Virus genome (UHGV): UHGV-0332176
DNA length: 64,000 nt
Direction: 5' to 3' (one strand)
Source of the DNA: a virus
The translations under genes were made by a program, and so were the position numbers. The notes beneath the pieces are model-generated. The model was not told the origin of the DNA, made no database searches, and saw only the letters and a list, made by a program, of their open reading frames with translations. This document shows, one piece after another, positions 4,985 to 55,469 of this stretch. Each line of letters begins with the position of its first letter. Position 1 is the first letter of the stretch.

Positions 4985-7263
4985 ATGTATATGAAGAAAA
5001 ACTTTTAACCGAAATTGCTATTAAAGCATCGGATATTGCTAAAGAAACAAAATCAAAAATTTTATTACCAGAACATTTTTTATCAGTTATTTTACAAGAT
5101 AAATTTATAGTAAATCTTCTTACAAAAAAAGATACTGAAAAATATGAAAATGTTGTTAAAATGTTAAATGATTTTTGTATGAATTCAAATGATATTGACC
5201 GTATAACGGATGAAGATTCTTCTGATGAATTAATAATTAGTCCATTAATTAGTATATATATTTCATATGTAACTGTATGTAATAAAAGTTGTTTAGATAT
5301 TTTATCAAAAAATAAAGATTTTTATAAAATTAATTTATTGGGAGCTTTTTTATTTATGCATTCAACTTATGCTAATAAAGTTTTAAGAGATAATGGTTTT
5401 GATGTTAATTATATAGATGAAACAGTTGAAAATTTGGCATCAAATATTATTTTTGATGACCGTATTAAACCATTATTAGAAGAAAAAACTTCAAATACTA
5501 AAAATGATAATAATTTTGAAGAAGAATATTTAAATGCATTTACAATTAATTTAACAAATAAAGTTAAACAAAAAGATTGGATTCATATTGTTGGAAGAAA
5601 TGAAGAAATTGATTTAATTAAACAAATTTTATTAAGAAAAGATAAACCAAATGTTATTTTAGTTGGATATTCTGGTGTAGGTAAAACTAAAATTGTTGAA
5701 GGAATTGCGTTTGATTATATTAAAAAACATCCTGAAATTACATTTTTACAATTAGATACTCTTTCATTATTTTCTAATATCGGTATTAAAGGTGAATTAG
5801 AAAATAGAATAAAAAATATATATAATATTATTTCAAAAAAAGGTAATATTATTCTTTTTATTGATGAAATTCATTCTATTTGTAATTCATCTAACAATGC
5901 AAGTCAACCAGATGTTGCTAATTTATTAAAACCATTATTAACAGATGGTAAATTAAAAATTATTGGAGCAACAACTTTTGAAGAATATAGAAAATATATG
6001 GAAAATGATGAAGCATTTACAAGAAGATTTTATAAAATGATAATAAATGAACCTTCTATTGATGAAACGAGAAAGATTATTGCCCAAATTTCAACTAAAT
6101 ATGAAGAATTTTATCATATTAAATATTTACGGAGAGCAAGAGAAACTATTCTTGATTTAACAAAGAAATATATTTTTGATAAACATTTTCCAGAAAAAGC
6201 GATTGATGTATTAGATATGGCTGGTGCATATTGTAAATATATTGATAATTCTGTTTGCGATGTTTTAGAAATTCAGAAAACAATTTCAAGAATGTTAAAT
6301 ATTCCGTTATCTAATATTTCACAATCTGAAGAAGACATTTATCAACACCTTGAAGATAATCTTAAAAAAGAAATTATTGGTCAAGATGAAGCTGTTAACC
6401 AAGTAAGTGATGCCGTTATTATTGCAAGGTCTGGCTTACGAGAAGCAAATAAAACAGCAACTTCGCTAATGTTTAAAGGTTCTTCTGGTGTTGGTAAAAC
6501 AGAAATTTGTAAAGTGTTATCAAAAATTATGAATATTCCATTAGTTAGATTTGATATGTCGGAGTTTATGGAAGAACATAGTGTACCAAAATTAATTGGT
6601 GCTCCTCCTGGATATAAAGATGCGGGTGATGGAAAAGCAGGAAATGGTTTACTAATTAATGCAATTGATGAAAATCCATATTGTATTTTATTATTAGATG
6701 AAATAGAAAAAGCTCATCCAAAAATTCATAATTTATTATTACAAGTAATGGATAATGGTAAATTAACATCTTCAATGGGTAAAAGTGTTTCTTTTGAAAA
6801 TGTATTTTTAATAATGACTTCAAATGTTGGTTCATATAATAGTCATAAAATTGGAATAGGTTTTGGAAATTCAGAAACATCACCATCTGATAAAGATTTT
6901 GAAGATAGCTTTTTACCAGAATTTAGAAATCGTATAGATTCAGTCATTACATTTAACACATTGCCTGAAAGTGTAATGAAGAAAATCTGTAAAAAATTTC
7001 TTAATGAATTAAAAGATATGTTAAGAAATAAAAAGATTGATTTTAAATATAATGATGATATAATAAATTATATAGTTTCAAAAGTTGGTTCTTCTGAAAA
7101 TGGAGCAAGACCAATGAAACATATCATTACTAATGAAATCAAAAATAAAATAGCTAAAAATCTTGTATTTGGAAAATACAAAGAAAACAGTATTATTAAT
7201 TTAACAATGAATGAAAATATTATTAATTTTGAGGTTGAAGAAAAATGTTTGAAAGAAGATTAA
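4975..7263 (+). CDS. ClpA/ClpC-like Hsp100 AAA+ chaperone with two nucleotide-binding domains
   Basis: NBD1 shows GRNEEIDLIKQILLRKDKPNVILVGYSGVGKTKIVEGIAF and IGATTFEEYRKY..AFTRRF. NBD2 shows IIGQDEAVNQVSDAV, GSSGVGKTEICKVLS, RFDMSEFMEEHSV.KLIGAPPGY and LLLDEIEKAHP. At 762 aa it is about the length of ClpA. Confidence 0.8.
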   Translation: MPVDVYEEKLLTEIAIKASDIAKETKSKILLPEHFLSVILQDKFIVNLLTKKDTEKYENVVKMLNDFCMNSNDIDRITDEDSSDELIISPLISIYISYVTVCNKSCLDILSKNKDFYKINLLGAFLFMHSTYANKVLRDNGFDVNYIDETVENLASNIIFDDRIKPLLEEKTSNTKNDNNFEEEYLNAFTINLTNKVKQKDWIHIVGRNEEIDLIKQILLRKDKPNVILVGYSGVGKTKIVEGIAFDYIKKHPEITFLQLDTLSLFSNIGIKGELENRIKNIYNIISKKGNIILFIDEIHSICNSSNNASQPDVANLLKPLLTDGKLKIIGATTFEEYRKYMENDEAFTRRFYKMIINEPSIDETRKIIAQISTKYEEFYHIKYLRRARETILDLTKKYIFDKHFPEKAIDVLDMAGAYCKYIDNSVCDVLEIQKTISRMLNIPLSNISQSEEDIYQHLEDNLKKEIIGQDEAVNQVSDAVIIARSGLREANKTATSLMFKGSSGVGKTEICKVLSKIMNIPLVRFDMSEFMEEHSVPKLIGAPPGYKDAGDGKAGNGLLINAIDENPYCILLLDEIEKAHPKIHNLLLQVMDNGKLTSSMGKSVSFENVFLIMTSNVGSYNSHKIGIGFGNSETSPSDKDFEDSFLPEFRNRIDSVITFNTLPESVMKKICKKFLNELKDMLRNKKIDFKYNDDIINYIVSKVGSSENGARPMKHIITNEIKNKIAKNLVFGKYKENSIINLTMNENIINFEVEEKCLKED

Positions 7264-7788: not shown

Positions 7789-7829
7789 AAAATCCTTATA
7801 AATATAATTATAGTTTATAAGGATTTTTT
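7789..7829 (+). terminator. hairpin terminator overlapping a T4-type late promoter TATAAATA (7797-7804)
   Basis: aaatccttataaatataattatagtttataaggatttttt. TATAAATA lies 26 nt upstream of the ATG at 7830. Confidence 0.6.
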
Positions 7830-9143
7830 ATGAGTAATATTGTTTATGAATATCGTACAGGTGTGTGTGCAATTGATTCTCCCTGCAAAGACCAAACTGT
7901 ATCTGTAAAAAAGCAGGCGATTGATGCATCAAATAAAAAACCTAAAACCAAGAATCCAACTCCATTAATACCTGTTCAGCCAACAAAACCAAGATATATG
8001 GGGGCAAATCATAGTCATTATGAAAGTTCAGTTACTGATAAAAGAGTTTATTTAAATGTTTCTCCATTAGCTAAAAATAATGAAGAATATTTAGATAGAA
8101 TACGTTATGTTTTAGGAAGTGAGAAAAGAGCATATAATGGTTCTAACATATATGGATTTTTATATAAATGTTTGAAACCTACCGTTGGTATTGTATTTCC
8201 ATATACACCAAGAATTTCAATAAATCATCAAGTTAATTATGAAAGAACTGAAATTATACATTCTAATTTAGCGGTTAGCCATTATAAAAATACTCCACCA
8301 CCAACATATAGTATAGATGCGGTATTTACTGCGGATTCAAAAGAAATGGCTCGTCATATGTTATCTGCAATATGGTTTATGAGAGCTGTTACAAAATGTG
8401 ATTTTGGTGAAGCTGCTAATAGTAGAAATGGAAAAGTTGATGGAATGAGTACAGCAGGTATGCCACCACCAATTTTATATTTGAATGGATGGAATAATTT
8501 ATTAGATAATATACCTGTTGTTGTAAAATCTTTTAGTTATACTTTACCAGATGACCAAGATTATGTTGGTTTAGGTTTAAATTTAAATCTTGCATCTTTT
8601 GAAAATATTAATCAATTATATTCAGATGCAATTACTGGTGATTTTTATGATACTGGATATGGGGATAAAATTAATATGAATAATACTTCAGAAACCAGAT
8701 ATATTAATGGTATTCCAGTAAATACATCAAATATTACAACAAATCCAACAACGATTGGTGTTAATAAAAATGATAGATTTTATTTAAAAAATTGGCTTCC
8801 AGTTGAATTACAAATGCATATAGAATTAGAAGTTCAACCAAATTTACAAAAATATAAAAAACGTTTTGATTTAGATTATTATAAAATGGGTGTTATGTAT
8901 TTAGATAGTTATAAAGGTGGTCAAACAATATTAGTTCCTGACCAGAATGGTTGTTTCCTAAGAGTTGCAAAGGATGCAACAACAGGAGAAATATTAAGTT
9001 CTGAAACACGTAGAACTTCTTTACAGGCAATTCAAAAAGAAATGAATGAAAATCCAAATGTAACCGCATCAGATGAAGTTAAATCAGGTTTTTCAATAAT
9101 GCCAACAAAATATACATTTGATAGAGCTGGTTGGACTTGGTAA
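7830..9143 (+). CDS. virion structural protein (late; putative baseplate module)
   Basis: 437-aa ORF downstream of the TATAAATA motif and the first gene of a block of large, contiguous, overlapping ORFs. No specific motif recognised. Confidence 0.55.
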   Translation: MSNIVYEYRTGVCAIDSPCKDQTVSVKKQAIDASNKKPKTKNPTPLIPVQPTKPRYMGANHSHYESSVTDKRVYLNVSPLAKNNEEYLDRIRYVLGSEKRAYNGSNIYGFLYKCLKPTVGIVFPYTPRISINHQVNYERTEIIHSNLAVSHYKNTPPPTYSIDAVFTADSKEMARHMLSAIWFMRAVTKCDFGEAANSRNGKVDGMSTAGMPPPILYLNGWNNLLDNIPVVVKSFSYTLPDDQDYVGLGLNLNLASFENINQLYSDAITGDFYDTGYGDKINMNNTSETRYINGIPVNTSNITTNPTTIGVNKNDRFYLKNWLPVELQMHIELEVQPNLQKYKKRFDLDYYKMGVMYLDSYKGGQTILVPDQNGCFLRVAKDATTGEILSSETRRTSLQAIQKEMNENPNVTASDEVKSGFSIMPTKYTFDRAGWTW

Positions 9144-27731: not shown

Positions 27732-27961
27732 TGTATGCTTTATTAAGTTTTATAATTTCAATGACATTATATGTATTAATATCTTATCCAGTAATGGCAT
27801 TTTTAATATTAGATATAAGTCCAGAAGATTTTTGTGCTTGGTTTGCATTTAATAATGAAAATCTAGCAAAAATATATTTTTATTTTTCTCCAATTACTTT
27901 ACCAATTTTATTTTTATATTTAGTTTATAAAGGAATATTAGATATAAAATGGAAGAAATAA
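27731..27961 (+). CDS. small membrane protein
   Basis: Two hydrophobic helices. Confidence 0.45.
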   Translation: MYALLSFIISMTLYVLISYPVMAFLILDISPEDFCAWFAFNNENLAKIYFYFSPITLPILFLYLVYKGILDIKWKK

Positions 27962-28548
27962 AAAAATATAATCTCCCTGACCTTGATATTGATATGGGTC
28001 AAACAACACGTGATGCAATTTTAAATAAATTGCATCACATTCCTGCATCTAAAATAAATGATAAAGGAATTAATCCGCACGGAGTGGGAATTTATTTTTG
28101 TAATATACCATATGATAGATTAACAGGTTTAGCTTCAATAGATTATAAGCACGCTGAAGAAGATTTAGGATATATTAAATTAGATTTTCTTCATAATACT
28201 GTTTATGATAAATTTACTTCTCGTCAACAAATTTTAAATATTATTAATAATGAACCAAATTGGAATTTATTATATAAAAAAGAAATTGTTGAACAATTAC
28301 CGCATATTAATAATTATTTTACTTTATTAAATCAATTACCGAAAATTAATTCTATTGAAAAATTAGCAATGTTTATTGCTATCATTAGACCTGCAAAAAA
28401 ATATTTAATTGATGAAGTTATTAAAAATGATTGGGAATCTATTAATGATAGAATATGGTTAAAAGAAGATTCAGGATATATGTATAAAAAATCACACGCT
28501 ATTGCATATGCGTTATCAATTATTGTTGCTCTTGGTCAAATTAATTAA
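27949..28548 (+). CDS. hypothetical protein
   Basis: 199 aa. The stop overlaps the stop of the convergent gene 28545..28973 at TTAA. Confidence 0.5.
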   Translation: MEEIKKYNLPDLDIDMGQTTRDAILNKLHHIPASKINDKGINPHGVGIYFCNIPYDRLTGLASIDYKHAEEDLGYIKLDFLHNTVYDKFTSRQQILNIINNEPNWNLLYKKEIVEQLPHINNYFTLLNQLPKINSIEKLAMFIAIIRPAKKYLIDEVIKNDWESINDRIWLKEDSGYMYKKSHAIAYALSIIVALGQIN

Positions 28549-28973
28549 TATCCGCTTGCATACCAAAATGAACCATTTGAAGTATCACCTGCTTTACTTC
28601 CTGATGAAAAATAAGTAAAATTATTTTTAGTTCTTGAATCCCATTTAATCCATCCATATATCCAACTACCAGAAGAATTATAAACTGTTATAACTGGAAT
28701 ATAACTTGTAGTGTTAAATGGAGTTAAAAAATTAATTGTTCCTTCACCAGCATTATTTAAATTAATAATAATATTTCCACCTTGTTCAATAAATCCATCA
28801 TTCCATTTACGATACCATCTATTGCCATCGGTTGAAGCATCAACAACATATTTCATTGAATTAATTTTTGAATCAATATTATTTAATAAATTTGTAAAAT
28901 TTAATGTTATTTCATTAAATTTATCAATTAATCCATTGATTCTTTCCATATCTATTTTACTTATATCAGCCAT
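28545..28973 (-). CDS. small late protein, paralog family A (coiled-coil N-terminus, beta-rich C-terminus; candidate fibre/adhesin or decoration protein)
   Basis: Paralogous to 32053..32532(-) and 47601..48050(-). It shares NxxWYRKWNDGxIEQGG with the 47601 paralog. Confidence 0.6.
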   Translation of the reverse strand: MADISKIDMERINGLIDKFNEITLNFTNLLNNIDSKINSMKYVVDASTDGNRWYRKWNDGFIEQGGNIIINLNNAGEGTINFLTPFNTTSYIPVITVYNSSGSWIYGWIKWDSRTKNNFTYFSSGSKAGDTSNGSFWYASGY

Positions 28974-28983
28974 CTATATATCC

Positions 28984-29014
28984 TTTGTAAGATATTTAAT
29001 AAATATCTTACAAA
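28984..29014. promoter_or_regulatory. 31-bp perfect palindrome directly upstream of minus-strand gene 28545..28973
   Basis: tttgtaagatatttaataaatatcttacaaa. This is a variant of the palindromes at 32541 and 48059 and contains AATAAATA (late-promoter-like). Confidence 0.5.
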
Positions 29015-29032: not shown

Positions 29033-29341
29033 TTATTTTATTTTTGATAAATCAATAAGATTCATAAATTTATTTTTATATTTCCTATCACCATCAGTTA
29101 ATTCTTCATCTGTTTTTGATAAAAATTCATCAAAAACATAAGTTAAATAATTTTTAATTTCTTTTTCGTGGTCAACAATTGGTTTGCTGGAATATCCATC
29201 ATTAATAGATGGAATGCTAAATTCTGAAAATTTGGTTTTTAAATCATTGGCTAAAAAATCATTAATGTAAATTTTTAAAGGTTCTTTAAATTTATAAGTT
29301 TTTCTTTTATAAACAAATTTTTTAATTGGATATACAGCCAT
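29033..29341 (-). CDS. hypothetical protein
   Basis: 102 aa on the minus strand, operonic with 29350..29694. Confidence 0.45.
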   Translation of the reverse strand: MAVYPIKKFVYKRKTYKFKEPLKIYINDFLANDLKTKFSEFSIPSINDGYSSKPIVDHEKEIKNYLTYVFDEFLSKTDEELTDGDRKYKNKFMNLIDLSKIK

Positions 29342-29349: not shown

Positions 29350-29694
29350 TCAATCTAAATGTATTATCTTTCTTTTTATACGCTTTTCTGAAAGATTTTT
29401 CAATTTGATTCCTTCAAATCCAGATGTTATAATATAATCATTATTAGAGAGGTGTTGTTTGCAATATTCAAATTGTTCAAAAATATTTTGATAATAAAGA
29501 GAAATAGGAATGTTAGAAGAATTTTTCCACCAGTTATCAGCTAATCTAAAAAATTTTTCAATGTCCATTGGTTTAAGTTCTTGAAGATTATAAAAAGAAA
29601 TATAGTTTTTAGAAACAGATTGAATTAAACATATTGTTTTTGTTTCAAATTTTTTATTATATATTTCAGTTAAATATGGATATTTTTCTAACAT
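29350..29694 (-). CDS. hypothetical protein (late; TATAAATA upstream on the minus strand at 29716-29723)
   Basis: 114 aa. RBS (aggag) and a late-promoter motif. Confidence 0.5.
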   Translation of the reverse strand: MLEKYPYLTEIYNKKFETKTICLIQSVSKNYISFYNLQELKPMDIEKFFRLADNWWKNSSNIPISLYYQNIFEQFEYCKQHLSNNDYIITSGFEGIKLKNLSEKRIKRKIIHLD

Positions 29695-29772: not shown

Positions 29773-30399
29773 ATGAATTGGAATATAGACAGAAATAAAA
29801 ATAAAATAATGATAGATTATTCATTATATTTAAAAAATATTAATAAACAAATAATTAGAAGAATTATAATTAAATCTATTAAAAGAATTTGTAATATTTT
29901 TCAAGTATCTATTAATCAAATAATATTTGACAATAATTTTATTATAGTTATAATAAATGAAGATAATGTTCCTGCGTTATTTGAATTTTTATATTCAATT
30001 AAAACAGCTTTAGAATTATATATTATTGAAAAGGAAAATAATATGAAAGATTTATATCAATTTAAATCTATGTCAGATTTAGAAAATGTAATTAATAAAA
30101 TGCGACTTAATTATGGAGATGAAGAAAATTCTTCGTTAACTGATACCTTTATTATTGAAGGAAATTCTGGATTAACTTATGGTTGGTTAAAAAATGTTGC
30201 TAAATATGTTGGTCCAACAAATGTATATATTGTAGAAAGTGATTATAACAATATTATGGAAGGTGATTTAGATTTCATTGATGAATTATATATTGATATA
30301 AAAAATATTGATTGGTTATCTCCGAAAAATTATGTTGATATTACTGCAAGTGAAATATCATTTGATAATAATGGTTTAATGAGATTATGGTGGGATTAA
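29773..30399 (+). CDS. hypothetical protein
   Basis: 208 aa. Confidence 0.5.
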   Translation: MNWNIDRNKNKIMIDYSLYLKNINKQIIRRIIIKSIKRICNIFQVSINQIIFDNNFIIVIINEDNVPALFEFLYSIKTALELYIIEKENNMKDLYQFKSMSDLENVINKMRLNYGDEENSSLTDTFIIEGNSGLTYGWLKNVAKYVGPTNVYIVESDYNNIMEGDLDFIDELYIDIKNIDWLSPKNYVDITASEISFDNNGLMRLWWD

Positions 30400-30779
30400 T
30401 GTGGTGGCAAATTTTTAAACGGTTTTGGCATTGTGATAAAACTAAATTAAGTATTCAAACTCAATTTAAAGCTGATATGCCTGATACAAAATATACTGCT
30501 GAAATATGTAACACAATAAAATTAGATGATTTATATTTTTCTGTTTATATATCTAAATGTTGGTATACTGATGGATATAGTGTTTATGGATATTCAATTA
30601 AATTTAATGATGAAGAAATTTGTATTTATGGAATAAAATATTTAATTTTATTTTCTTTAATAGAAATAGTTATTAATTATTATAATTGGAAAAAAGAAAT
30701 TATAAAAAAAATTAATCAAAAAAAAGAATATAAAAAAAGATTAAAAGAAATTACAAATAAAATTAAGGAAGGGGAATAA
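30387..30779 (+). CDS. hypothetical protein
   Basis: 130 aa. Confidence 0.45.
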   Translation: MVGLMWWQIFKRFWHCDKTKLSIQTQFKADMPDTKYTAEICNTIKLDDLYFSVYISKCWYTDGYSVYGYSIKFNDEEICIYGIKYLILFSLIEIVINYYNWKKEIIKKINQKKEYKKRLKEITNKIKEGE

Positions 30780-30781
30780 TT

Positions 30782-31174
30782 ATGGTATATTTAGAGGAAT
30801 TGTTGCCCGAGTTCAAAAAAGGGATAAAGATTAGACGGAAACCTTGGCGTGAGGGTAGATATATTAAATTAAAAGGATTGTACGCCAGAGATGAGTACGG
30901 CAACTGCTACTTTTTAGAACCTGATGAGATAGCAGCCGATGATTGGGAATTTTACCAAGAACCTATTGACTGGGACTACATCATCAAGAACAAGTGCTTA
31001 TGCTGGTTTTGGAATAATGATAATGAAGGTATTGGAAACGTTGGAATATTATCAGATGTTTGTCAAGAAATGGAGTATCCTTTTACCAGTTTTTATCAAG
31101 GAAATAAATTTATTTGGAAATTTTGTCGTCCTGTCTACCGAAACGAGGTAATTTTTTATAATAATAAACAATAA
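30782..31174 (+). CDS. DUF2829-like protein (Thoeris anti-defence Tad2-like)
   Basis: The N-terminal LEELLPEFKKGIKIRRKPWREGRYIKL and C-terminal EPDEIAADDWEF match the DUF2829 pattern (gKkvrR.gW..g.yi ... DllAeDWe). The first ~220 nt are visibly GC-richer than the flanks. Confidence 0.55.
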   Translation: MVYLEELLPEFKKGIKIRRKPWREGRYIKLKGLYARDEYGNCYFLEPDEIAADDWEFYQEPIDWDYIIKNKCLCWFWNNDNEGIGNVGILSDVCQEMEYPFTSFYQGNKFIWKFCRPVYRNEVIFYNNKQ

Positions 31175-32056: not shown

Positions 32057-32532
32057 ATTTCATAAACAATAAATTGTGGAGATTGTGCATATATATTCTC
32101 TTCAGTAAATTGAATAATTCCATCACCTAAAACATATTTAACTTTAAAGGTATAAGTTCCACTTGGAATTATATCTAAATATTGTAATGAAAATGGATTA
32201 TTTGAAGAAGCTGATGGAGAAACACAAGTTTGCTGACATAATAATGAATCATCTCTATAAAAATATATTTTAAACCAAGATGTACTATTGTTATTAGAAT
32301 TGGCATCTCCACAAGTTGATAAAAAAATTGGTCTTCCTTTTGATGTTATAACAATTTCTTTGATAATTTCTGGATTTGAACTTGATAATGTTGAACCATT
32401 TTCTAATTTAATCATATTATAATTGCGATTAAATTTATCATTTACATTAATTATATTACTTGTTAAATTATTTAATGTTTCTGTTAATTCATTAATACGT
32501 GAAATAGGTAATTTACTTGTATCATTCATCAT
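32053..32532 (-). CDS. small late protein, paralog family A
   Basis: The N-terminal MMNDTSKLPISRINELTETLNNL is paralogous to 47601 and 28545. Confidence 0.6.
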   Translation of the reverse strand: MMNDTSKLPISRINELTETLNNLTSNIINVNDKFNRNYNMIKLENGSTLSSSNPEIIKEIVITSKGRPIFLSTCGDANSNNNSTSWFKIYFYRDDSLLCQQTCVSPSASSNNPFSLQYLDIIPSGTYTFKVKYVLGDGIIQFTEENIYAQSPQFIVYEI

Positions 32533-32540
32533 TTAACCCC

Positions 32541-32569
32541 TTTGTTTGTATTTAATAAATACAAACAAA
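32541..32569. promoter_or_regulatory. 29-bp perfect palindrome upstream of minus-strand gene 32053..32532
   Basis: tttgtttgtatttaataaatacaaacaaa, identical to 48059-48087. Confidence 0.55.
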
Positions 32570-32599
32570 TATTTTAGTTAAAAAATAATGGTATAAATA

Positions 32600-33811
32600 C
32601 TAATAATCCCTTCTAAATTCATTTCCCCAAAAGTTATAATTACCACCAGTATTATAACCTTTAAAATATGATGCTCTGCCATATTTGTCATAAGTTTGAT
32701 AAGTTTTTTGTGATAAACTTATTGCCATTGAAACATCGTGTGTTTTATTTTTTGGATATTTATATACTAAATAATAATTTCCTCTATTTGTATGAACATA
32801 AATTCTATCATTTTTAGCATCATAAAATAAAGTTCCATTTAATTTTTGAGAATCTTTAACATTTTTACTATTTCCAACTCTAAATGTTGGAGCAACAGTT
32901 AATATTGCATCACGAACAGCAATATCTCCAACTGAACCCATACCATTTTTAGGAGCTTCATCAAAATAATAGATAACATTTGATGTTGATTTCCATTCAT
33001 CATCTATTTTTTTATATAATGTTTGTAAAATAGCAACACTTGAATACATACCATTAGTAAAGGTATATTGGGATAAATTATCAGATTTTGTTAATTGGGC
33101 AGCATTTATAAAAATACCATATGAATCATTAATAGTTGAAAATATAGGGTTATTATTTTTATCTAACAATTTAATAATACATTTTAAAATTAATGATGTT
33201 TTAAATTTTGCTGTAACATAGACCCTATAAATATCATCGCTAATTTTGGAAATTCCGCCATTATGTATTTGAATTTCTCCAAAATCAGTATCAATTTTTT
33301 GAACTGTAGCATTATTTTTTGAAATATCACATAAAACATTTACACCAAAAATTTCTTTATTATCCATTAAACATACAGCAATATTTGTTAATTCAACTGT
33401 TTTAACATATAAACTAAATGTAAAAGTTGATGTTAAATCATTATAAAAAATATATTCTGCTCTATGTTCTGCATTAACTGTTGATGATGTCATTTTTGAA
33501 CATTGATTATATGGAAATAAAACTAATGGTTCTTTGGTTATTTTTGTATTTGTTTTAATCCAATTAGGAGCATTAAAATTTTCTGAATATTTAATATAAT
33601 TGTATAATCTTATATATTTTGCATAATAATCACCATTAATACCAATATCATTTGTTGGTAATTTTTTTTCATTTTTATATAAATGTTGATTAATTGATTC
33701 CCATTTTGTTGTATTTTTTACCCATAATGAACCATCAAATGAAGGGAAAATTAAATCTTTTTTATGGTCAATATTAATTGAATTTTGCATATTAATCCTA
33801 TATTTTAACAA
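32600..33811 (-). CDS. hypothetical virion protein
   Basis: 403 aa on the minus strand with an RBS. Confidence 0.5.
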   Translation of the reverse strand: MLKYRINMQNSINIDHKKDLIFPSFDGSLWVKNTTKWESINQHLYKNEKKLPTNDIGINGDYYAKYIRLYNYIKYSENFNAPNWIKTNTKITKEPLVLFPYNQCSKMTSSTVNAEHRAEYIFYNDLTSTFTFSLYVKTVELTNIAVCLMDNKEIFGVNVLCDISKNNATVQKIDTDFGEIQIHNGGISKISDDIYRVYVTAKFKTSLILKCIIKLLDKNNNPIFSTINDSYGIFINAAQLTKSDNLSQYTFTNGMYSSVAILQTLYKKIDDEWKSTSNVIYYFDEAPKNGMGSVGDIAVRDAILTVAPTFRVGNSKNVKDSQKLNGTLFYDAKNDRIYVHTNRGNYYLVYKYPKNKTHDVSMAISLSQKTYQTYDKYGRASYFKGYNTGGNYNFWGNEFRRDY

Positions 33812-35040: not shown

Positions 35041-36219
35041 ATGGTAAAGTTATTCCAATACACAAATTATATAGATTATAATGAATTAATCAATAAACCA
35101 TTAATTAATAAAGTTGTTGTTGAAGGTGATAAATCATTAGCTGATTATGGTATTCAACCTGCTGGTAATTATGCTCATTTAAATGATAATGGAAAAGTAC
35201 CATTAGAAGAATTAGATGATTCTATTTTAGGTAATTTACAATTTCAAGATGTCTGGGATGCTAAAAATAATAATCCTCAATTACCATTAGTACCAACAAA
35301 AAAAGGTCAATATTGGATTGTTTCAACAGCAGGAGAACAATTTGGATTATCTTTTAATACGGGCGATTGGTTAGTTGCTGGTGATAGTGTATGGCAAAAA
35401 GTTGATAATTCAGATGCTGTTACTTCAGTTAATGGTAAAATTGGAAATGTTATTCTAACAGCTAATGATATTAATTATAATAATGAAACTGTTAGTGACG
35501 CTCTTGATTCTAAACAAAATCAATTAACAGCTGGTAAAAATATTAAAATTGAAAATAATATTATTTCTGCTGAATTTAATACAGCTATTATTGATTATAA
35601 TTTAACTTATAATAAACCATCAATTAATGGTGTTGAATTAATTAATAATAAAGCATTAGAAGATTTTGATATTCAAAGAACTATTAAAGCTGGAAATAAT
35701 GTTTATCTAACAAAATCTGAAACAGATAAAATGTTAGATACTATTAATGTATATGATGCAACTGAAACAAGAAAAGGTGTTTCTGAAATTGCAACTCAAG
35801 CAGAAGTAACAGCAGGAACAGATGATTTTAGATATATTACACCAAAAAAATTAAAAATTGTAACTGATGAAATTGATACAACTATACAAAATCAATATGA
35901 TACATTACATAGCGAAATAATTGAAGAATCACAAAGAGCAATTAGAGCAGAAAATTCTCTTTTATCTGAAATTCAATCAGAAGAACTAAGAGCATCAACA
36001 GCAGAAACTAATATTAATAATGATTTAACATCTCATAAAAATAATACAAATAACCCACATAATGTAACTGCTGAACAATTAAGTGTATATACAAAAACAG
36101 AAATTGATAATTTATTATCAACTATTAATACAAATTATCAAGAAATATTAAAAACAATTTCAGATTTAGATGCCCGTCTTACTAAAATGGAAACTAATAT
36201 TGATGGGGGCGGAGCTTAA
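35041..36219 (+). CDS. tail fibre protein with Phage_fiber_2-type repeats
   Basis: DYNELINKPLINKV.. is an N-terminal motif shared with 36866 and 38170. There is a coiled-coil-like C-terminus. Confidence 0.55.
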   Translation: MVKLFQYTNYIDYNELINKPLINKVVVEGDKSLADYGIQPAGNYAHLNDNGKVPLEELDDSILGNLQFQDVWDAKNNNPQLPLVPTKKGQYWIVSTAGEQFGLSFNTGDWLVAGDSVWQKVDNSDAVTSVNGKIGNVILTANDINYNNETVSDALDSKQNQLTAGKNIKIENNIISAEFNTAIIDYNLTYNKPSINGVELINNKALEDFDIQRTIKAGNNVYLTKSETDKMLDTINVYDATETRKGVSEIATQAEVTAGTDDFRYITPKKLKIVTDEIDTTIQNQYDTLHSEIIEESQRAIRAENSLLSEIQSEELRASTAETNINNDLTSHKNNTNNPHNVTAEQLSVYTKTEIDNLLSTINTNYQEILKTISDLDARLTKMETNIDGGGA

Positions 36220-36267
36220 CATTTAATAAATATTTTTATAAAATATATTTTATAAGGAAAAAGTAAA

Positions 36268-36855
36268 ATGATTCAAGGAACAAAAATTTATAGTGTATCT
36301 GTAGCTAATGCTGCTGGTTCTACAAATGAAGAAAAAGGATTTTTAGATAATAAAAAAGTATCTGATTATTCTGATTTTGATATTTCTACACAACCAGTTG
36401 AAGGTGAAACATTAGAACAATATAAAATTAAAGCTCGTGGATTGGTTAGATATAATCAAATGTGCTTAAATTTACAAAGAGGATTAGATTATTTAGGTGA
36501 AGTTGAAACAACTGGTGCAAATCATATTACTCCACCAACAAAATTAGAATTTAAAGTTGCTTATAGTCAACCAGATGGTTTATGTGTTCAAGTTGCTGAT
36601 TCTGATTATGAAGAAGATGAGGAAATTTTTAAAACACGAGATGGCAGAGTATTCTTTAAAGGAACAAAAGCAATTAAACGTTTAATTGCTATGGTATTAG
36701 TTGATGATTATACTGTTATTGCTAATTATTTTGATAATACTAAAACTCCATCAGGAAATCCATTAGGTTGGCAATTAAAAGAATTAGTAGTTAAAGGTCC
36801 AATTGCTGATTTAGAAACTGCTGAAGCATTAGTAACAGTAACTGAACTTTTATAA
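36268..36855 (+). CDS. hypothetical virion protein
   Basis: 195 aa. Confidence 0.5.
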   Translation: MIQGTKIYSVSVANAAGSTNEEKGFLDNKKVSDYSDFDISTQPVEGETLEQYKIKARGLVRYNQMCLNLQRGLDYLGEVETTGANHITPPTKLEFKVAYSQPDGLCVQVADSDYEEDEEIFKTRDGRVFFKGTKAIKRLIAMVLVDDYTVIANYFDNTKTPSGNPLGWQLKELVVKGPIADLETAEALVTVTELL

Positions 36856-36865
36856 GGAGTAAATA

Positions 36866-38152
36866 ATGGCTAATGAAAATGCAACTAAAATTCAATTAAG
36901 ACACGATTCATCTGCAAATTGGTTTGCTAATAATCCAATTTTAGCTGAAGGTGAAGTTGGTATTGAAATTGATAAAAATAGAATGAAAGTTGGTAATGGT
37001 GTAAGTCATTACAATGATTTAGAATATTTTTCTGATACTGTTGATTATAATGAATTAATTAATAAACCACAAATTAATAGTATCGGTTTGATGGGTAACT
37101 TATCTTTACACGAATTAGGTATTCAAGCAGAAGGCGATTATGCAACTGTATTAACTTTAACAGAAGGTTTATCAGAAAAAGCTGATAAAGCTGATACTTA
37201 TACTAAAACTGAAATTGATACTGAATTTTCTTCACTTATTAAAGTTCCAGCTATTGATGGACACGATGGAGAATGGTTAACTAATAAAGATGGAGTAGTT
37301 AAATGGGAAAATCTTGGTGATTCAGTTGTTACTAATGAAGAATTAACAACTGCATTAGAACCATATGCTTTAAAAACTAATATACCTACAAAAAATTCTC
37401 AATTAGAAAATGATTCTGACTTTGTAACTTTAACTGAATTAGCAGAATCTGATTATGTAACAAATACAAATTTAACAACTAAATTAGGTGAATATGTTAC
37501 TAATACTGCATTAGCTGAAGAAGGATATGCAAAAAATAGTGAATTAGCTCAAGTTGCAAAATCAGGTTCATATAATGATTTAACAAATAAACCAACTATT
37601 CCAACTGTTCCTGAAAATATTACAACTCAAGGAAATACTTTTAACGGAGCTAATCAATTAGTAAAATTAGAAGCTGATGGTAAATTACCAGCATTAGATG
37701 GAAGTAAATTAACTGGAATAAGTTCTGGAACATCTGATTATTCTGTATTATCTAATAAGCCACAAATTAATTCAGTTGAATTATCAGGTAATAAAACATT
37801 AGACCAATTAGGAATTCAAGCTAAAGGAGATTTTGCAGTTAAATCAACTACATTATCTGGATATGGTATTACAGATGCATATACAAAGACTGAATCTGAT
37901 AATAAATATGCAACTCAAACTTCTTTGAATTCTTATTTAACAACTGCATCAGCTTCTACAACTTATGCTACTAAAACAGAATTAGTAGATAAAGCTGATG
38001 TTGAAGATATTCCACAAGGAAATCAATTAATGGCTGGACAAGCTCCTACTGTTGCCGATATTAGTGCAGAAACAGTTACAGATATTCCAGGTTTAATTAG
38101 TGCAATTAATGCAATTTTAGCTCAATTAAGAACACGTAATGTTATTGAATAA
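36866..38152 (+). CDS. tail fibre protein (repeat-containing; paralog of 38170..38925)
   Basis: Repeats YTKTEIDTEF, LSEKADKADTYTKTE and SNKPQINSVELSGNKTLDQLGIQAKG. The C-terminus LAQLRTRNVIE is shared with 38170. Confidence 0.6.
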   Translation: MANENATKIQLRHDSSANWFANNPILAEGEVGIEIDKNRMKVGNGVSHYNDLEYFSDTVDYNELINKPQINSIGLMGNLSLHELGIQAEGDYATVLTLTEGLSEKADKADTYTKTEIDTEFSSLIKVPAIDGHDGEWLTNKDGVVKWENLGDSVVTNEELTTALEPYALKTNIPTKNSQLENDSDFVTLTELAESDYVTNTNLTTKLGEYVTNTALAEEGYAKNSELAQVAKSGSYNDLTNKPTIPTVPENITTQGNTFNGANQLVKLEADGKLPALDGSKLTGISSGTSDYSVLSNKPQINSVELSGNKTLDQLGIQAKGDFAVKSTTLSGYGITDAYTKTESDNKYATQTSLNSYLTTASASTTYATKTELVDKADVEDIPQGNQLMAGQAPTVADISAETVTDIPGLISAINAILAQLRTRNVIE

Positions 38153-38169
38153 ATTAAAGGAATAATTAT

Positions 38170-38925
38170 ATGACAGAAAGAATTGATATTAAATATGTAT
38201 TAAAAGATACAAAAGCAAATTGGACAAGTTTTAATCCAATTTTATCAAAAGGTATTATGGCTTATGAAACTGATACAAATTTAATTAAATTATTTGATGG
38301 TGTTTCTGATTATAATTCATTAGCATATATTGGTGGAACAGGTGGTTCATCTACACCAACTGATTATGCATCTTTATCTAATAAACCACAAATTAATTCA
38401 GTTGAATTATCAGGTAATAAAACATTAGACCAATTAGGAATTCAAGCTAAAGGTAATTATTTGGTTTCATCTGATTTAAATAATTATGCTTTGAAATCTG
38501 AATTACCTACAAATACAAGTGATTTAACAAATGATTCTGGATTTTTAACATCTATTCCTTCAGAATATGTTACTGAAACAGAATTAAATAGCAGTTTAGA
38601 AGATAAAGCTGATACTGCAACAACTTTATCTGGATATGGTATTACAGATGCATATACAAAAACTGAAGCTGATGGTAAATATGCAACAAAAACTGAATTA
38701 TCTAATAAAGCTGATACAAGTGCATTATCTAATTATGCAACTACATCTGCTTTAACAGAAGGATTAGCAGAAAAAGCCGATACAAGTGCATTACCTGCTT
38801 CAACTTCTTTAATGAATGGAACTGCTCCTTCTGTTGCTGATTTTGCAGGAGCTGATGCAGAAGGATTAAAAACAGAATTAAATGCATTTTTAGCCCAACT
38901 TAAAACTCGTGGTGTAATTGCATAA
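38170..38925 (+). CDS. tail fibre protein (paralog of 36866..38152)
   Basis: Shares a 77-bp near-identical DNA block (38377-38453 versus 37751-37827) and the C-terminus LAQLKTRGVIA. Confidence 0.6.
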   Translation: MTERIDIKYVLKDTKANWTSFNPILSKGIMAYETDTNLIKLFDGVSDYNSLAYIGGTGGSSTPTDYASLSNKPQINSVELSGNKTLDQLGIQAKGNYLVSSDLNNYALKSELPTNTSDLTNDSGFLTSIPSEYVTETELNSSLEDKADTATTLSGYGITDAYTKTEADGKYATKTELSNKADTSALSNYATTSALTEGLAEKADTSALPASTSLMNGTAPSVADFAGADAEGLKTELNAFLAQLKTRGVIA

Positions 38926-40270: not shown

Positions 40271-40492
40271 ATGAAAACATATAATCCAAAAAAATCTGGA
40301 AATGTCATTTATGTTATAGATAATGATATTACAAAAGCATTAAATAGATTACGTCACGAAACTGCACCTTTATTAAAAGAATTAAAGATGAAAAGATTTT
40401 TTGAATCAAATTCTGAAAAGAAAAGACGTAAAAAGAAAGAAGCAATTGCTCGTGAAAAAATGAGACAACGAAAAGCTGAAATGTTTTTTTAA
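40271..40492 (+). CDS. rpsU: ribosomal protein bS21 homolog (phage-encoded)
   Basis: VIYVIDNDITKALNRLRHETAPLLKELKMKRFFESNSEKKRRKKKEAIAREKMRQRK follows the S21 pattern (V.V..NE....ALRRFKR.....G.L.E.RRR.YEKPS..RKRK...A). Confidence 0.6.
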   Translation: MKTYNPKKSGNVIYVIDNDITKALNRLRHETAPLLKELKMKRFFESNSEKKRRKKKEAIAREKMRQRKAEMFF

Positions 40493-40494: not shown

Positions 40495-40536
40495 TGAAAA
40501 AATGATTCTTTTAAAAAGAATCATTTTTTATTTTTG
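40495..40536 (+). terminator. rho-independent terminator
   Basis: gaaaaaatgattctttttaaaaagaatcatttttt. Confidence 0.7.
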
Positions 40537-47083: not shown

Positions 47084-47575
47084 ATGACAATTAGAGTTGG
47101 TAAATTTGAAAAAATTAGTTTAAAACAATGGCATAAAGATTATCTTTCATTAGATGATAAAATGCTTAATGAAATCATTAAAATTCCAACAAGAGCAACA
47201 AAAGGTTCAGCAGGTTACGATATTGTAACTCCATTTGATATTGATTTAAAAGTTGGTGAATCTATGAAAGTTCCAACAGGATTAAAATGTAAAGTTGATA
47301 ATGGTTGGTTTCTTGGTATTTTTCCAAAATCAGGGCTTGGTTTTAAATATTCATTAAGATTGGGTAATTCTATTGGAGTTATTGATGAAGATTATTATAA
47401 TAATGAAAATAATGAAGGTCATATTTGGGTAAAAATTCAAAATGATGGTGATAAAGATTTTCATTTAGATGCAGGAAAAGCATTTTGTCAAGGTATTTTT
47501 TTGCCATATGGAATTACTTATGATGATGAATCAGAAGGCGTAAGAATTGGTGGGTTAGGCTCAACTAATGCTTAA
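47084..47575 (+). CDS. dut: dUTPase
   Basis: ATKGSAGYDI (motif 1/2), PKSGLGFK (motif 3), GVIDEDY (motif 4) and RIGGLGSTNA (motif 5). Confidence 0.7.
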   Translation: MTIRVGKFEKISLKQWHKDYLSLDDKMLNEIIKIPTRATKGSAGYDIVTPFDIDLKVGESMKVPTGLKCKVDNGWFLGIFPKSGLGFKYSLRLGNSIGVIDEDYYNNENNEGHIWVKIQNDGDKDFHLDAGKAFCQGIFLPYGITYDDESEGVRIGGLGSTNA

Positions 47576-47604
47576 AAAAGAGAGGATTAATCCTCTCTTT
47601 TTAA
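47574..47604. terminator. bidirectional hairpin terminator
   Basis: aaaaagagaggattaatcctctcttttt, between convergent genes. Confidence 0.75.
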
Positions 47605-48050
47605 TATCCACAAGCATACCAGTTAGCCATTTGGATTGATTCATTATAAGTGCTATTAATATACCAACGAATTTTAACACTATCATTTTTAAATGAATAA
47701 AATCCCATCATTGCTGTACATAAACCATTACCTTCATTATCTCTATCTGTTCTAAAAGGTGTAGCAAATATTTGATAATTGACATTTGAAAAATTAATTA
47801 AAAAATTAATATTAGCTCCACCTAAATCTTTAATAAATGAACCATAATTATATACTCCGCCTTGTTCAATCCATCCATCATTCCATTTACGATACCATTG
47901 AGTATTATTTTCATTAGAACCAGATTCAATAACATATTTCATTGAATCTAATTTATTATTAATAATATTAAAATTGTTATTAATTTCATTTAATTTATCA
48001 ATTAATTTATCAACACGTGAAATAGGTAATTTACTTGTATCTGCCATCAT
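47601..48050 (-). CDS. small late protein, paralog family A
   Basis: MMADTSKLPISRVDKLIDKLNEI...WYRKWNDGWIEQGG. Paralogous to 28545 and 32053. Confidence 0.6.
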   Translation of the reverse strand: MMADTSKLPISRVDKLIDKLNEINNNFNIINNKLDSMKYVIESGSNENNTQWYRKWNDGWIEQGGVYNYGSFIKDLGGANINFLINFSNVNYQIFATPFRTDRDNEGNGLCTAMMGFYSFKNDSVKIRWYINSTYNESIQMANWYACGY

Positions 48051-48058
48051 TTATCCCC

Positions 48059-48087
48059 TTTGTTTGTATTTAATAAATACAAACAAA
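48059..48087. promoter_or_regulatory. 29-bp perfect palindrome in the divergent intergenic region upstream of 47601..48050
   Basis: tttgtttgtatttaataaatacaaacaaa, identical to 32541-32569. Confidence 0.55.
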
Positions 48088-48144
48088 CTTTATAAAGCAA
48101 ATCCAAAGGAATAAATATTATTATATTAATAGGAGAATATAATA

Positions 48145-48669
48145 ATGTTTGAAGAAATTGTTACTCAATATGGGTCATCAGAACCAATACAATCATCAAA
48201 TAATTTAATTATGTCAGATAAATCTGATAAAAAAATAGTTATCTCTTTCCCTCTTTTAATGAGAATAATGGAATGGTGTCACGAAGATGCTAAAGATGAT
48301 GTTGAATTACATAAAGTTATGGAAAAATTAATTGCATTTAATGATGGAATCAATCCGCTAACAATTGATGTTTATGATTGTTTAATTGATGGTGTTGAAT
48401 TATCAAATACATCTGAATTAAATGATTTAGTAGAACCAATGAAAGCAGGTTGTTTTTCAGAATATGATATGTCAGATGCTGTTAATACAGTAAAAAAATC
48501 ATATGATGAAATGAAACCTTTAGTTCCAACATTTTCTTGGGAACAAGGTTTAGATGATAATTCAACGATTATTAATTTAAATAATGAAGATTGTTCAAAC
48601 CAAGCACAAGAAATTGATTCAGATATGGAAAAAGAAATTCAAAATTTAATTAATTTAAGTAAATTATAA
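48145..48669 (+). CDS. acidic hypothetical protein
   Basis: 174 aa. Confidence 0.5.
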   Translation: MFEEIVTQYGSSEPIQSSNNLIMSDKSDKKIVISFPLLMRIMEWCHEDAKDDVELHKVMEKLIAFNDGINPLTIDVYDCLIDGVELSNTSELNDLVEPMKAGCFSEYDMSDAVNTVKKSYDEMKPLVPTFSWEQGLDDNSTIINLNNEDCSNQAQEIDSDMEKEIQNLINLSKL

Positions 48670-55382: not shown

Positions 55383-55469
55383 GGGCAGGCTGCGAAGTTG
55401 GAGAGTCGCCTTTGACTGTAAATCAAATCCCTTCGGGGTGAGTGTGTTCGAATCACACCCTGCCCACCA
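55383..55469 (+). tRNA. tRNA-Tyr (anticodon GTA), type II with a long variable arm
   Basis: Acceptor gggcagg/cctgccc, D arm gcga..tcgc, anticodon stem tttga/tcaaa with loop ctGTAaa, variable hairpin, T arm gtgtg ttcgaat cacac, ends ACCA. Confidence 0.8.

Follow-up and report, generated by a model that had tools for sequence, protein, structure and literature searches.

A perfectly symmetric palindrome before the short fibre-knob genes of an uncultured human-gut jumbo phage: a candidate elaboration of the T4-type late promoter

Short fibre-knob proteins are encoded in many copies by an uncultured, AT-rich jumbo phage of the human gut, a distant relative of the Rak2 group, and nearly all of their genes follow a perfect palindrome of 29-31 bp that ends at or close to the ribosome-binding region. 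The reading that we favour, with a probability of roughly 0.55, is that this palindrome is a promoter proper to the fibre-knob family, in which the late promoter of T4 type has been elaborated into a symmetric dyad. Three members of the family lie in the window, by which we mean the whole 64,000-nt stretch of phage DNA analysed, all on the minus strand: P1 (28545..28973, 142 aa), P2 (32053..32532, 159 aa) and P3 (47601..48050, 149 aa). A preliminary description had singled out these three ORFs for a common N-terminus and for the palindrome ahead of each, and both features proved real and far beyond chance. Its account of the surrounding genes has to be amended. Only P3 is a lone minus-strand gene, as all three had been said to be; P1 comes third in a block of minus-strand genes, after 29350..29694 and 29033..29341, and P2 follows 32600..33811(-). 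Stop codons overlapping those of a convergent gene at TTAA are found for P1 (28545-28548), but the corresponding letters for P2 (32053-32056) are TTAG, which gives TAG on the plus strand and TAA on the minus strand. P3, for which an overlap had also been claimed, has none: a bidirectional intrinsic terminator (AAAAAGAGAGGATTAATCCTCTCTTTTT, 47575..47602, acting on both strands) separates it from the convergent gene, labelled a dUTPase from Pfam on locus L035. The phage has a GC content of 25.8%.

Alignment of the three proteins bears out the common N-terminal motif, MxDxSK..R...L, as well as the segment WYRKWNDGxIEQGG shared by P1 and P3. P1 and P3 are 41% identical, and P2 is 20% identical to P1 and diverges past about residue 35. 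Two lines of evidence place P1 and P3 among known tail fibres. First, both are borderline members of PF21882 (Gp53-like_C): their scores of 24.7 and 21.1 bits fall short of the gathering cutoff of 24.9, but the alignment spans profile positions 1-84 of 84 in each, and the close homologues P0015, P0041, P0044, P0047 and P0059 carry a precomputed match to this family. P3 is also matched by the tail fibre family PHROG 1396, and a profile search against PDB sequences gave weak matches to the R2 pyocin fibre (6ct8, E 0.39) and to AP22 gp53 (4mtm, E 0.46). Second, a predicted monomer model of P3 (pLDDT 85) has as its best Foldseek match in the PDB the R1 pyocin fibre 6cxb (E 5e-4, probability 1.00, TM 0.48/0.56), followed by 6cl5. 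The predicted heads of P1 and P3 thus resemble the gp53/R-pyocin-foot knob. P2 gave no match in a search with PF21882. In its monomer model (pLDDT 83.5), a helix at residues 10-34 leads into eight strands, and Foldseek returned 334 PDB matches at E <= 1e-3, headed by the phi812 central spike knob (9eul, E 7e-7), C1QL2, Pgp3 and the HS1 and Sf6 needle knobs; as modelled, the head of P2 is a TNF/C1q-like jelly-roll knob after a helical stalk. As far as sequence and fold go, the layout suggested earlier is supported: each protein begins with a helix that leads into a beta-rich head, and heads of this kind are found at the tips of trimeric fibres.

These resemblances have limits. P1 and P3 share with the R-type pyocin/P2-like foot and with AP22 gp53 the motif W..W.DG.IEQ.G and the C-terminal W.A.GY motifs, but at 142-149 aa they have no shaft and a helix of only ~27 residues, and their genes are dispersed in multiple copies. 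P2 has the predicted coiled-coil-plus-knob layout of Sf6 gp26 and Pgp3 (Foldseek E 7e-7 to 5e-5), yet it is far shorter than the Sf6/HS1 needle, phi812 spike and Pgp3 proteins, with no detectable sequence similarity to their knobs. In the models, the first 35 residues of the family proteins form a disordered peptide and a single helix, and searches of this segment found no Pfam or PHROG domain. We regard the proteins as probably trimeric and would place them in the virion; the conserved N-terminal ~20-35 aa, which include part of the helix, are presumably an adaptor that docks the protein to the virion, and the C-terminal part is predicted from sequence and models to be an exchangeable receptor-binding head. 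No cultured relative of the family was matched by tblastn against 50,697 GenBank phage records, and a DNA search gave as its sole match a split DNA-polymerase fragment shared with Rak2-like phages, at 66-74% identity.

Upstream of P1 the palindrome is 31 bp long (28984..29014, centre 28999; 15+1+15) and reads TTTGT-AAGAT-ATTTA-T-TAAAT-ATCTT-ACAAA on the gene strand. Upstream of P2 it is 29 bp long (32541..32569, centre 32555; 14+1+14; TTTGT-TTGT-ATTTA-T-TAAAT-ACAA-ACAAA), and the P3 copy (48059..48087, centre 48073; again 14+1+14) has the same sequence. As had been described, all are perfect, save for the unpaired central base, and the P2 and P3 copies are identical. No equal of the three arose in 100 shuffles, and only about 6 palindromes with arms of at least 14 nt occur in the 64 kb, these 3 included, the others being terminators or AT hairpins. 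The centre, TATTTA-T-TAAATA, is invariant among copies. The stems contain 1-4 G-C pairs, start with TTT and end with AAA, and this last AAA forms part of an extended AAAGG SD. On the gene strand the palindrome runs into GGGG and then the start codon, at 32537-32540 and 32530-32532 for P2 and at 48055-48058 and 48048-48050 for P3.

The ataaata core that had been compared with a T4 late element is indeed late-box-like, but it was quoted from the plus strand and so lies opposite the genes. The gene strand reads TATTTATTAAATA, which contains the box ATTAAATA, with the TAAATA core kept and T at position -12. This putative late -10 element lies on the minus strand at 28993..29000, 19 nt before the P1 ATG, and at 32549..32556 and 48067..48074, 16 nt before the ATGs of P2 and P3. 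The canonical late box AATAAATA is on the plus strand, facing away from P1 (28998..29005), opposite P2 (32554..32561) and opposite P3 (48072..48079), where it points at the gene 48145..48669(+). Further late boxes lie close by. A second outward-facing box, TATAAATA on the plus strand (TATTTATA on the gene strand), is found 23 nt outside the P2 palindrome at 32592..32599, where it adjoins the stop codon (32600-32602) of 32600..33811(-). The late box AATAAATA of P3's divergent neighbour 48145(+), at 48110..48117 on the plus strand, lies 22 bp from the palindrome edge and 23 nt after TATTTAT, gene strand.

The element is conserved well beyond the window. A perfect palindrome precedes 78 of the 79 family genes that a protein-similarity search retrieved. 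A single 286,782-bp contig of a relative from human-gut metagenomes has at least 11 copies of the gene, in keeping with the dispersed copies noted before. A total of 84 such palindromes were found in the 0.99 Mb examined, 81 before family genes and 3 before fibre genes with other N-termini. By comparison, 119 matches to a loose TTCA...TGAA pattern in unrelated IMG/VR viral contigs were chance matches only and included no perfect palindrome. The family genes have 19 stem variants, all of them Watson-Crick throughout, with no G·U pair and no mismatch. An alignment of 16 variants gave 208 of 208 cells Watson-Crick; two-sided changes occur in 6 of 13 pairs and one-sided changes in none, a result reached by 0 of 500 shuffles. 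A compensated change is also caught in a recent state at one orthologous site (GGTT/AACC vs GGAT/ATCC).

T4-type late boxes are in use in this phage lineage: in the window TATAAATA and AATAAATA are each intergenic in 9 of 18 occurrences, against a non-coding share of only 5.8% of the DNA, and lie 5-54 nt upstream of structural genes. Three observations support a late-promoter function for the palindrome. First, the sole family gene without a palindrome (L197) has on its sense strand AATAAATA-N5-AAAGG, with the box 19 nt before the ATG (16-19 nt for the copies in the window) and the same box-N5-AAAGG spacing as the palindrome. Second, the palindrome follows an intrinsic terminator at a distance of 0-5 nt at five loci (L036, L123, L129, L131 and L148), which leaves no room for another promoter and implies that the primary transcript starts inside the palindrome and has no left arm. 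Third, on a smaller contig (L097), two fibre genes of 289 aa each, divergently oriented and with homologous N-termini, flank the same palindrome. In addition, at L023 and L123 a G run still follows the palindrome although there the ATG is 20 nt away and a different SD serves the gene. Rak2-like phages are reported to use ATAAATA as a late motif, predicted in CBB and GAP32, and to encode a sigma of gp55 type, the latter reported for CBB (PMC5259590). The PA5oct RNA-seq paper contained no late-promoter information. In T4, 32 of 50 late sites are TATAAATA and 9 have A at -13, and in Aeh1 positions -13/-12 are unlike those of T4 (PMC2988020).

The shared late promoter/operator proposed in the preliminary description is supported in its late-promoter part by the L197 box, the abutting terminators and the divergent pair, but the canonical box faces away from the genes, and it does so in all but two site types. 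That outward box is kept even where a bidirectional terminator would halt an outward transcript at once. The gene-strand box ATTAAATA, for its part, is intergenic in 8 of 53 occurrences in the window; it is not enriched in intergenic DNA and is common in coding DNA, and thus may be a poor stand-alone late promoter. Nor do back-to-back promoters alone give any reason for the exactly complementary -5..-1 spacers of the two arms.

As a family promoter, the element might work as follows. The invariant centre would be two back-to-back TAAATA boxes with common upstream positions, and towards the fibre gene the start of transcription would come ~6-8 nt beyond the box. Such a start would fall in the terminal RAA, a conserved part of the right arm just ahead of the GG(G/A) Shine-Dalgarno run, so that the primary mRNA would be without the left arm. 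The mirror-image box may fire the opposite way, and in at least one relative would serve the second, divergent fibre gene. Transcription would take place late in infection. The exact symmetry of the arms would be kept at the DNA level and not as an RNA helix, either because the dyad itself is used (as a hairpin or cruciform, or by a symmetric factor) or because intramolecular template switching homogenises the arms.

Alternatively, the palindrome could function as RNA, folding into a hairpin within the 5' UTR or an intercistronic region to control translation or stability of read-through mRNA, as at T4 genes e, soc, 49 and I-TevI, or to provide the site for an RNA-binding regulator. It could in that case coexist with an internal late promoter. 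Given its composition, the predicted RNA hairpin is a stable one (z-score ~-4; -10.8 to -12.9 kcal/mol, with -12.9 for the P1 copy), and it ends right at the SD. Where genes are arranged in tandem (P1, L029, L028), transcripts from upstream must pass through the hairpin. Among contexts the central base shows a strand bias, as would be expected of a loop base. One hairpin in the window, at gene 7830, has exactly the T4 gene-e design: its 5' arm contains TATAAATA and its 3' arm the SD. In the gene-e paradigm a late box lies within an inverted repeat directly before the RBS (PMC3014915), and late transcripts would be without the 5' arm. In the fibre genes, however, neither the G run of the SD nor the AUG belongs to the helix or is sequestered by it, and the repeat is a full palindrome through its centre. 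RBS sequestration on the gene-e model was rejected for them, since over 44 contexts the RBS had a mean unpaired probability of 0.50 behind its native 5' flank, against 0.47 behind a shuffled one, and so was no more paired. Stems selected only as RNA normally tolerate G·U pairs and mismatches, whereas none is present in the 208 cells described above. The abutting terminators, which imply a primary transcript lacking the left arm, and the family member that has no hairpin at all also weigh against a role as RNA, and we consider such a role unlikely.

Other familiar elements were considered and set aside. The palindrome does not look like an intrinsic terminator: the polarity of its tracts is reversed, its stems are AT-rich, and a terminator scan did not flag it. 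Genuine terminators of this phage, such as those at 47575-47602 and 23904-31, look different. No sigma-70-type promoter site was found at the palindrome, where regional counts equal the shuffle expectation, and a search of the whole window with Rfam 15 at gathering score returned only tRNAs. TATTTAT upstream of the palindrome was rejected as a -10 element of the family, because it is mostly the late box of a divergent neighbour on the other strand, is missing in several tandem contexts, and is separated from the palindrome by a terminator in some. The spacing from the neighbour's late box to the palindrome is exactly 23 nt in ~12 contexts, mostly with divergent neighbours and with unrelated spacers.

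The same spacing bears on the possibility that the palindrome is an operator, a DNA site for a dimeric phage regulator that co-regulates all fibre paralogues as one regulon, delaying them as a repressor or, as an activator, making up for a weak ATTAAATA box. In these ~12 contexts the dyad centre would be placed near -53 of the neighbour's promoter, a typical activator position, as for class I activators and P2 Ogr sites. An operator would also account for an element that is strictly fibre-gene-specific though the genes are dispersed over the genome, and for its invariant centre and conserved outer half-sites. But positions that are not read by the protein should drift independently in each arm, and they are always complementary, which a simple operator leaves unexplained. 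Moreover, in the 31-bp variants the distance between the inner and outer conserved blocks shifts by 1 bp per arm. We therefore give little credence to an operator.

The constant complementarity could instead be a by-product of mutation. Function would then be limited to a short symmetric core, with intramolecular template switching at an AT-rich dyad prone to forming hairpins copying one arm onto the other and sometimes flipping the centre. Template switching at inverted repeats is described as homogenising arms and inverting spacers (PMC8604942), and the phage encodes T4-like recombination proteins, UvsX-like and gp32-like. Every change is exactly two-sided, including the changes from 4 to 5 nt in both arms, and orthologous sites that are otherwise identical have different central bases in 2 of the 12 site clusters; the clusters contain no unpaired arm change, while the 40-nt flanks have 16 segregating sites in 480 nt. 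On the other hand, a by-product should vary in extent and decay in some copies, but no lineage departs from arms of 14-15 nt, not even L097 and L099, whose arms are not adjoined by an SD; the outer ends, TT(T/C)R / YRAA, are conserved; and an imperfect state was caught in 0 of 78 copies. We judge that symmetry is quite unlikely to be a by-product alone.

A bolder version of the promoter reading takes the central base as a switch. The palindrome would represent a new class of late promoter working by way of a DNA hairpin or cruciform, so that two overlapping, opposed promoters would be recognised or opened according to structure, and the unpaired central base decides which direction carries the canonical box. 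Hairpin-mediated template switching might flip this base at high frequency and so alter, stochastically, which one among a dozen receptor-binding paralogues a particular phage lineage expresses strongly. We think this version very doubtful.

The fibre-knob genes themselves undergo exchange. Four or more head types occur with the N-terminal module (43 knob, 9 Tail-Collar, the latter assigned from Pfam PF07484 on record, 1 TNF-like, and one 239-aa type), N- and C-terminal types combine as mosaics, and different paralogues occupy orthologous sites (L001 vs L150; the P1 site vs L038). At such sites, with flanks ~83% identical, replacement is confined to the knob core, bounded by IEQGG and WYACGY. 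The earlier suggestion of interchangeable modules is supported at the level of sequence and fold. By analogy with the structure-forming sequences behind antigenic variation, the palindrome could be a recombination signal, a cruciform or hairpin that starts gene conversion or cassette exchange among paralogues, and the palindrome edge is indeed the exact point at which DNA similarity among the copies begins. The same edge of homology would be expected of any conserved 5' block, however, and the boundaries of exchange at orthologous sites lie inside the ORF and not at the palindrome. The palindrome-less family member has been exchanged at an orthologous site as well. A recombination signal is, in our view, highly improbable. 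As to a DGR or an invertible segment as the source of knob variability, neither a reverse transcriptase, nor a template repeat, nor flanking inverted crossover sites were seen near the knob genes.

Returning to the promoter reading, the element shares several features with T4-type late promoters: an 8-bp AT box about one helical turn upstream of the expected start with no -35 element, similar boxes before structural genes in the window, AATAAATA on one palindrome strand with the TAAATA core on the other, and a palindrome-less member that uses plain AATAAATA at the same spacing. It differs from them in its overlapping back-to-back boxes, in a gene-strand box that is off at -12, and in its perfectly covarying arms. 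To our knowledge, known late promoters are not embedded in perfect palindromes of 29-31 bp.

The proteins can be compared with branched-fibre systems, such as CBA120 TSP1-4, RaK2 gp526-534 and phiKp24, in which several receptor-binding proteins per virion have a conserved N-terminal attachment part and C-terminal parts of differing specificity (PMC10253068). The fibre-knob family has a like division into a conserved N-terminal part, presumably for attachment, and differing C-terminal domains. Its shared part, however, is a 20-35 aa peptide and helix and not a gp10-like XD or D1 domain, so that the likeness is a functional one only. The proteins are also tiny, with lectin-like or knob heads and no depolymerase, and the genes are scattered, each with its own promoter on our reading, and not clustered.

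If the promoter reading is true, a compact cis-element marks all receptor-binding tip genes in a group of uncultured human-gut jumbo phages. Since it can be recognised from sequence alone, it could help to find host-range genes in metagenomic phage genomes; all 84 of the palindromes examined precede a fibre gene. T4-type late promoters are thought to be just an 8-bp box. Here a late box would be built into a perfectly symmetric element whose symmetry has been held through at least 19 variants. An explanation of that symmetry, whether as a structured DNA promoter, bidirectional firing, a dedicated factor or self-homogenising DNA, may give new insight into late transcription in large phages or into the speed at which palindromes homogenise themselves. 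The family would also constitute a natural kit of one adaptor and many lectin-like heads, which may be of interest for the engineering of receptor-binding proteins.

All three small minus-strand fibre genes, P1 (28545..28973, 142 aa), P2 (32053..32532, 159 aa) and P3 (47601..48050, 149 aa), were found where the preliminary description had placed them, and alignment bears out the common N-terminus it had seen (MxDxSK..R...L in all three) as well as the motif WYRKWNDGxIEQGG in two members, P1 and P3. This pair also has a C-terminal W.A.GY in common and is 41% identical, and P2 departs from both after about residue 35. The arrangement of the genes is less uniform than had been proposed. The statement that each is a lone minus-strand gene fails for P1 and P2, which are preceded by minus-strand genes (29350..29694 and then 29033..29341 ahead of P1, and 32600..33811 ahead of P2). 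Of the two stop-codon overlaps reported at TTAA, the first is as described but the second reads TTAG, and P3 does not overlap its convergent neighbour at all, a bidirectional terminator (47575-47602) standing between them. A minus-strand terminator-like hairpin with a T tract lies at 28493-28510, about 35 nt past the P1 stop; it is inside the coding sequence of the convergent plus-strand gene and may terminate the P1 transcript.

P1 and P3 match PHROG tail-fibre and virion families and, over the whole profile length, score just below the cutoff of Pfam Gp53-like_C (24.7 and 21.1 bits, cutoff 24.9). The predicted model of P3 (pLDDT 85) has a helix (residues 10-36) and then a beta-sandwich. Its closest PDB structure is the R1 pyocin tail fibre foot, followed by H-type lectins and tailspike receptor-binding domains, and the family profile weakly matches the R2 pyocin fibre and AP22 gp53. 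In the P2 model (pLDDT 83.5) the helix leads into a TNF/C1q-like jelly roll; its best matches, all trimeric, are to the phi812 central-spike knob, the Sf6/HS1 needle knobs, Pgp3 and C1q. Across the retrieved loci, one N-terminal module is joined to at least four head types (43 distinct gp53-like knobs, nine Tail-Collar proteins, the TNF-like P2 and one 239-aa type); knobs and N-terminal subtypes combine as mosaics, and at least 11 family copies are dispersed across 287 kb of one relative. Such an architecture, with exchangeable receptor-binding tips on a shared adaptor, is the one that had been suggested; we infer that the proteins trimerise and reside in the virion. At orthologous sites the swap is confined to the knob core, from IEQGG to WYACGY; at 47622-47842 and 28567-28906, comparison of orthologous sites in phages with about 83% identity shows no remaining DNA similarity in this core. 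The core looks like a hypervariable cassette; the surrounding DNA showed no DGR components. These proteins add new members to known kinds of fibre-tip domain; their small size, copy number and dispersal are unusual. Their closest functional analogy is docking by conserved N-termini in the branched fibres of CBA120 and RaK2, although the docking domains of those fibres are absent from them (PMC10253068). Elsewhere in the window (35041-38925), the products of three successive fibre-like genes (392, 428 and 251 aa; a 195-aa gene lies between) share repeated DYNELINKPxIN...LxxLGIQ motifs and have matches in many PHROG families of tail fibres and hyaluronidases. For the 428-aa product, an Mtd_N match is on record.

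The window (25.8% G+C) carries tail-fibre genes, an endolysin, a UvsX-like recombinase, a gp32-like SSB and a 19-tRNA array (55383-63069, ARAGORN). The tRNA genes are all on the plus strand, and Rfam gives an additional tRNA-like match at 57286-57358. At the DNA level the window resembles cultured phages only in a split DNA-polymerase fragment, which shares 66-74% identity with Rak2-like jumbo phages. The polymerase is seemingly in separate pieces about 23 kb apart: 27949-28548 (199 aa, matching PHROG 11778), the only part with this DNA similarity, and 51680-52213, a 177-aa DNA_pol3_alpha fragment. The small fibre proteins had no tblastn match among 50,697 GenBank phage records. Close relatives are metagenome contigs of 206-293 kb, from human gut where labelled; one is 99% identical across the P3 region, and the flanks in another, of 286,782 bp, are about 83% identical. 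The otherwise syntenic 287-kb relative lacks counterparts of genes 30387..30779 and 30782..31174; in it, the sequences bordering the interval 30387-31174 directly adjoin. Directly after a ribosomal protein S21 homologue (40271..40492; Pfam match on the 99%-identical locus L035) comes a perfect, AT-rich palindrome of 16+1+16, AAAAAATGATTCTTTT-A-AAAAGAATCATTTTTT (40497-40529), with the A-tract/T-tract polarity of a bidirectional terminator.

Ahead of each small-fibre ATG there is, as had been noted, a palindrome that is perfect save for one unpaired central base: 15+1+15 for P1 (28984-29014) and an identical 14+1+14 for P2 (32541-32569) and P3 (48059-48087). Shuffles of the window yield no match to them, and arms of 14 nt or longer occur in only about six palindromes of the 64 kb, the rest being terminators or AT hairpins. 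DNA similarity among the three loci starts exactly at the palindrome's outer edge. Family genes were collected via protein similarity, which avoids bias towards the DNA motif, and the palindrome is present in 78 of the 79 with enough upstream sequence to be counted. Its consensus is TT(T/C)RW-N4/5-ATTTA-[T]-TAAAT-N4/5'-WYRAA; in most copies GG(G/A) comes next, with the ATG 8-20 nt on. Across 16 aligned stem variants every pair cell is Watson-Crick (208/208), with no G·U pairs or mismatches; six of 13 pairs vary, the change is always two-sided, and no shuffle attains this covariation. The lack of G·U pairs speaks for a symmetry maintained in the DNA, or in both strands, and not in a single RNA. 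Loci L199, L097 and L099 add three more stem variants, and one orthologous site has a recent compensated arm change. Palindromes of this type number 84 in the 0.99 Mb searched: 81 precede family genes, and three stand before fibre genes whose N-termini differ. Among 73 knob-bearing genes with other N-termini, mostly from other phages, only two have a perfect palindrome upstream, both of the same type, and a looser pattern, tried on unrelated viral contigs, gave 119 matches but no perfect palindrome. The palindrome of the family genes is conserved and specific to fibre genes; the literature searched yielded no description of such an element. Outside the human-gut jumbo lineage, the same type occurs on L097 (28.7-kb contig, 31% G+C) and L099 (57-kb contig), there ahead of a 260-aa knob fibre (1943-2779). 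In L199, from a 281-kb relative, a permuted two-piece tmRNA gene (5550-5954, minus strand; Rfam RF04321, 82.8 bits, and RF01849, 82.2 bits) lies between two palindrome-bearing fibre paralogues.

We read the palindrome as the probable promoter of the family genes. In the window, TTGACA-N17-TATAAT host-type promoters precede many plus-strand genes, and structural genes are preceded, at 5-54 nt, by TATAAATA or AATAAATA boxes, each of them 50% intergenic although non-coding DNA makes up 5.8% of the window. From this sequence pattern, the lineage appears to use T4-type late boxes. T4 has TATAAATA at 32 of 50 late sites and A at -13 in nine, and the late boxes of Aeh1 differ at positions -13/-12 (PMC2988020); for the Rak2-like phage CBB, an ATAAATA late motif and a gp55-like sigma were reported (PMC5259590). 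The palindrome centre consists of two TAAATA cores back to back. L197, the sole family gene without a palindrome, has instead a plain sense-strand AATAAATA-N5-AAAGG, with the same spacing as the box-N5-AAAGG of the palindromes, and a sister genome has a palindrome-bearing paralogue at this site. Five distinct contexts have an intrinsic terminator overlapping the palindrome or 0-5 nt upstream of it; in these, nothing else could be the promoter. The G run after the palindrome is kept even where it is too distant from the ATG to serve as an SD, and thus fits an initial transcribed sequence. In L097 (954-2785) the palindrome stands between two divergent 289-aa fibre genes, one collar-type and one knob-type; homology to the family adaptor extends to the N-termini of both, MA(T)DLSLIPQNRI. 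Transcription would start 6-8 nt after the box, so the two palindrome ends, with their conserved RAA, would be two start regions, and the variable 4-5 nt of the arms would be spacers between box and start.

Several other roles were considered. The RNA hairpin of the palindrome is stable (-10.8 to -12.9 kcal/mol), with SD and AUG outside it. Sequestration of the ribosome-binding site as in T4 gene e is unsupported for the fibre genes, since in 44 contexts shuffling the 5' flank does not lower the pairing of the site. That design is clear, however, at another gene of the window, 7830..9143 on the plus strand (PMC3014915). Upstream of it, a hairpin (7789-7832; AAATCCTTATAAA / TTTATAAGGATTT, 11-nt loop) has TATAAATA (7797-7804) within its 5' arm and loop, and its 3' arm contains the SD AAGGA; by analogy, read-through transcripts would be silenced and late transcripts translated. 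A terminator was rejected for the palindrome: its tract polarity is wrong, its stems are AT-rich, and the terminator scan did not flag it. A promoter scan found no sigma-70 promoter there, and no Rfam family matched. A recombination signal is weakened as a reading because the exchange boundaries fall inside the ORF.

Some points do not fit a simple late promoter. The "ataaata" core of the preliminary description lies on the strand opposite the genes, the palindromes having been quoted from the plus strand; the gene strand reads TATTTATTAAATA. With two site types as the only exceptions, its central base is T, so that the canonical AATAAATA points away from the small-fibre gene, and the gene-strand box is ATTAAATA, which is common in coding DNA (8 of 53 intergenic in the window). 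The T centre and outward AATAAATA are kept even where a bidirectional terminator would at once stop an outward transcript. Two orthologous site pairs differ solely at the central base, with no unpaired arm changes against 16 segregating sites in 480 nt of flanks. In about a dozen contexts a neighbour's late box, mostly that of a divergent neighbour, lies exactly 23 nt from the palindrome, across spacers of unrelated sequence. Two opposed promoters give no reason for exactly complementary spacers. The arm symmetry might reflect a role as hairpin or cruciform, a symmetric factor, or homogenisation of the arms by template switching. The last is a process known to homogenise the arms of inverted repeats and to invert spacers (PMC8604942), but a pure by-product sits poorly with an arm length that is constant, at 14-15 nt, in every lineage. 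Taken as a promoter, the palindrome is best filed as a new, putative variant of the T4-type late promoter, with an anatomy and covariation that are striking and testable.
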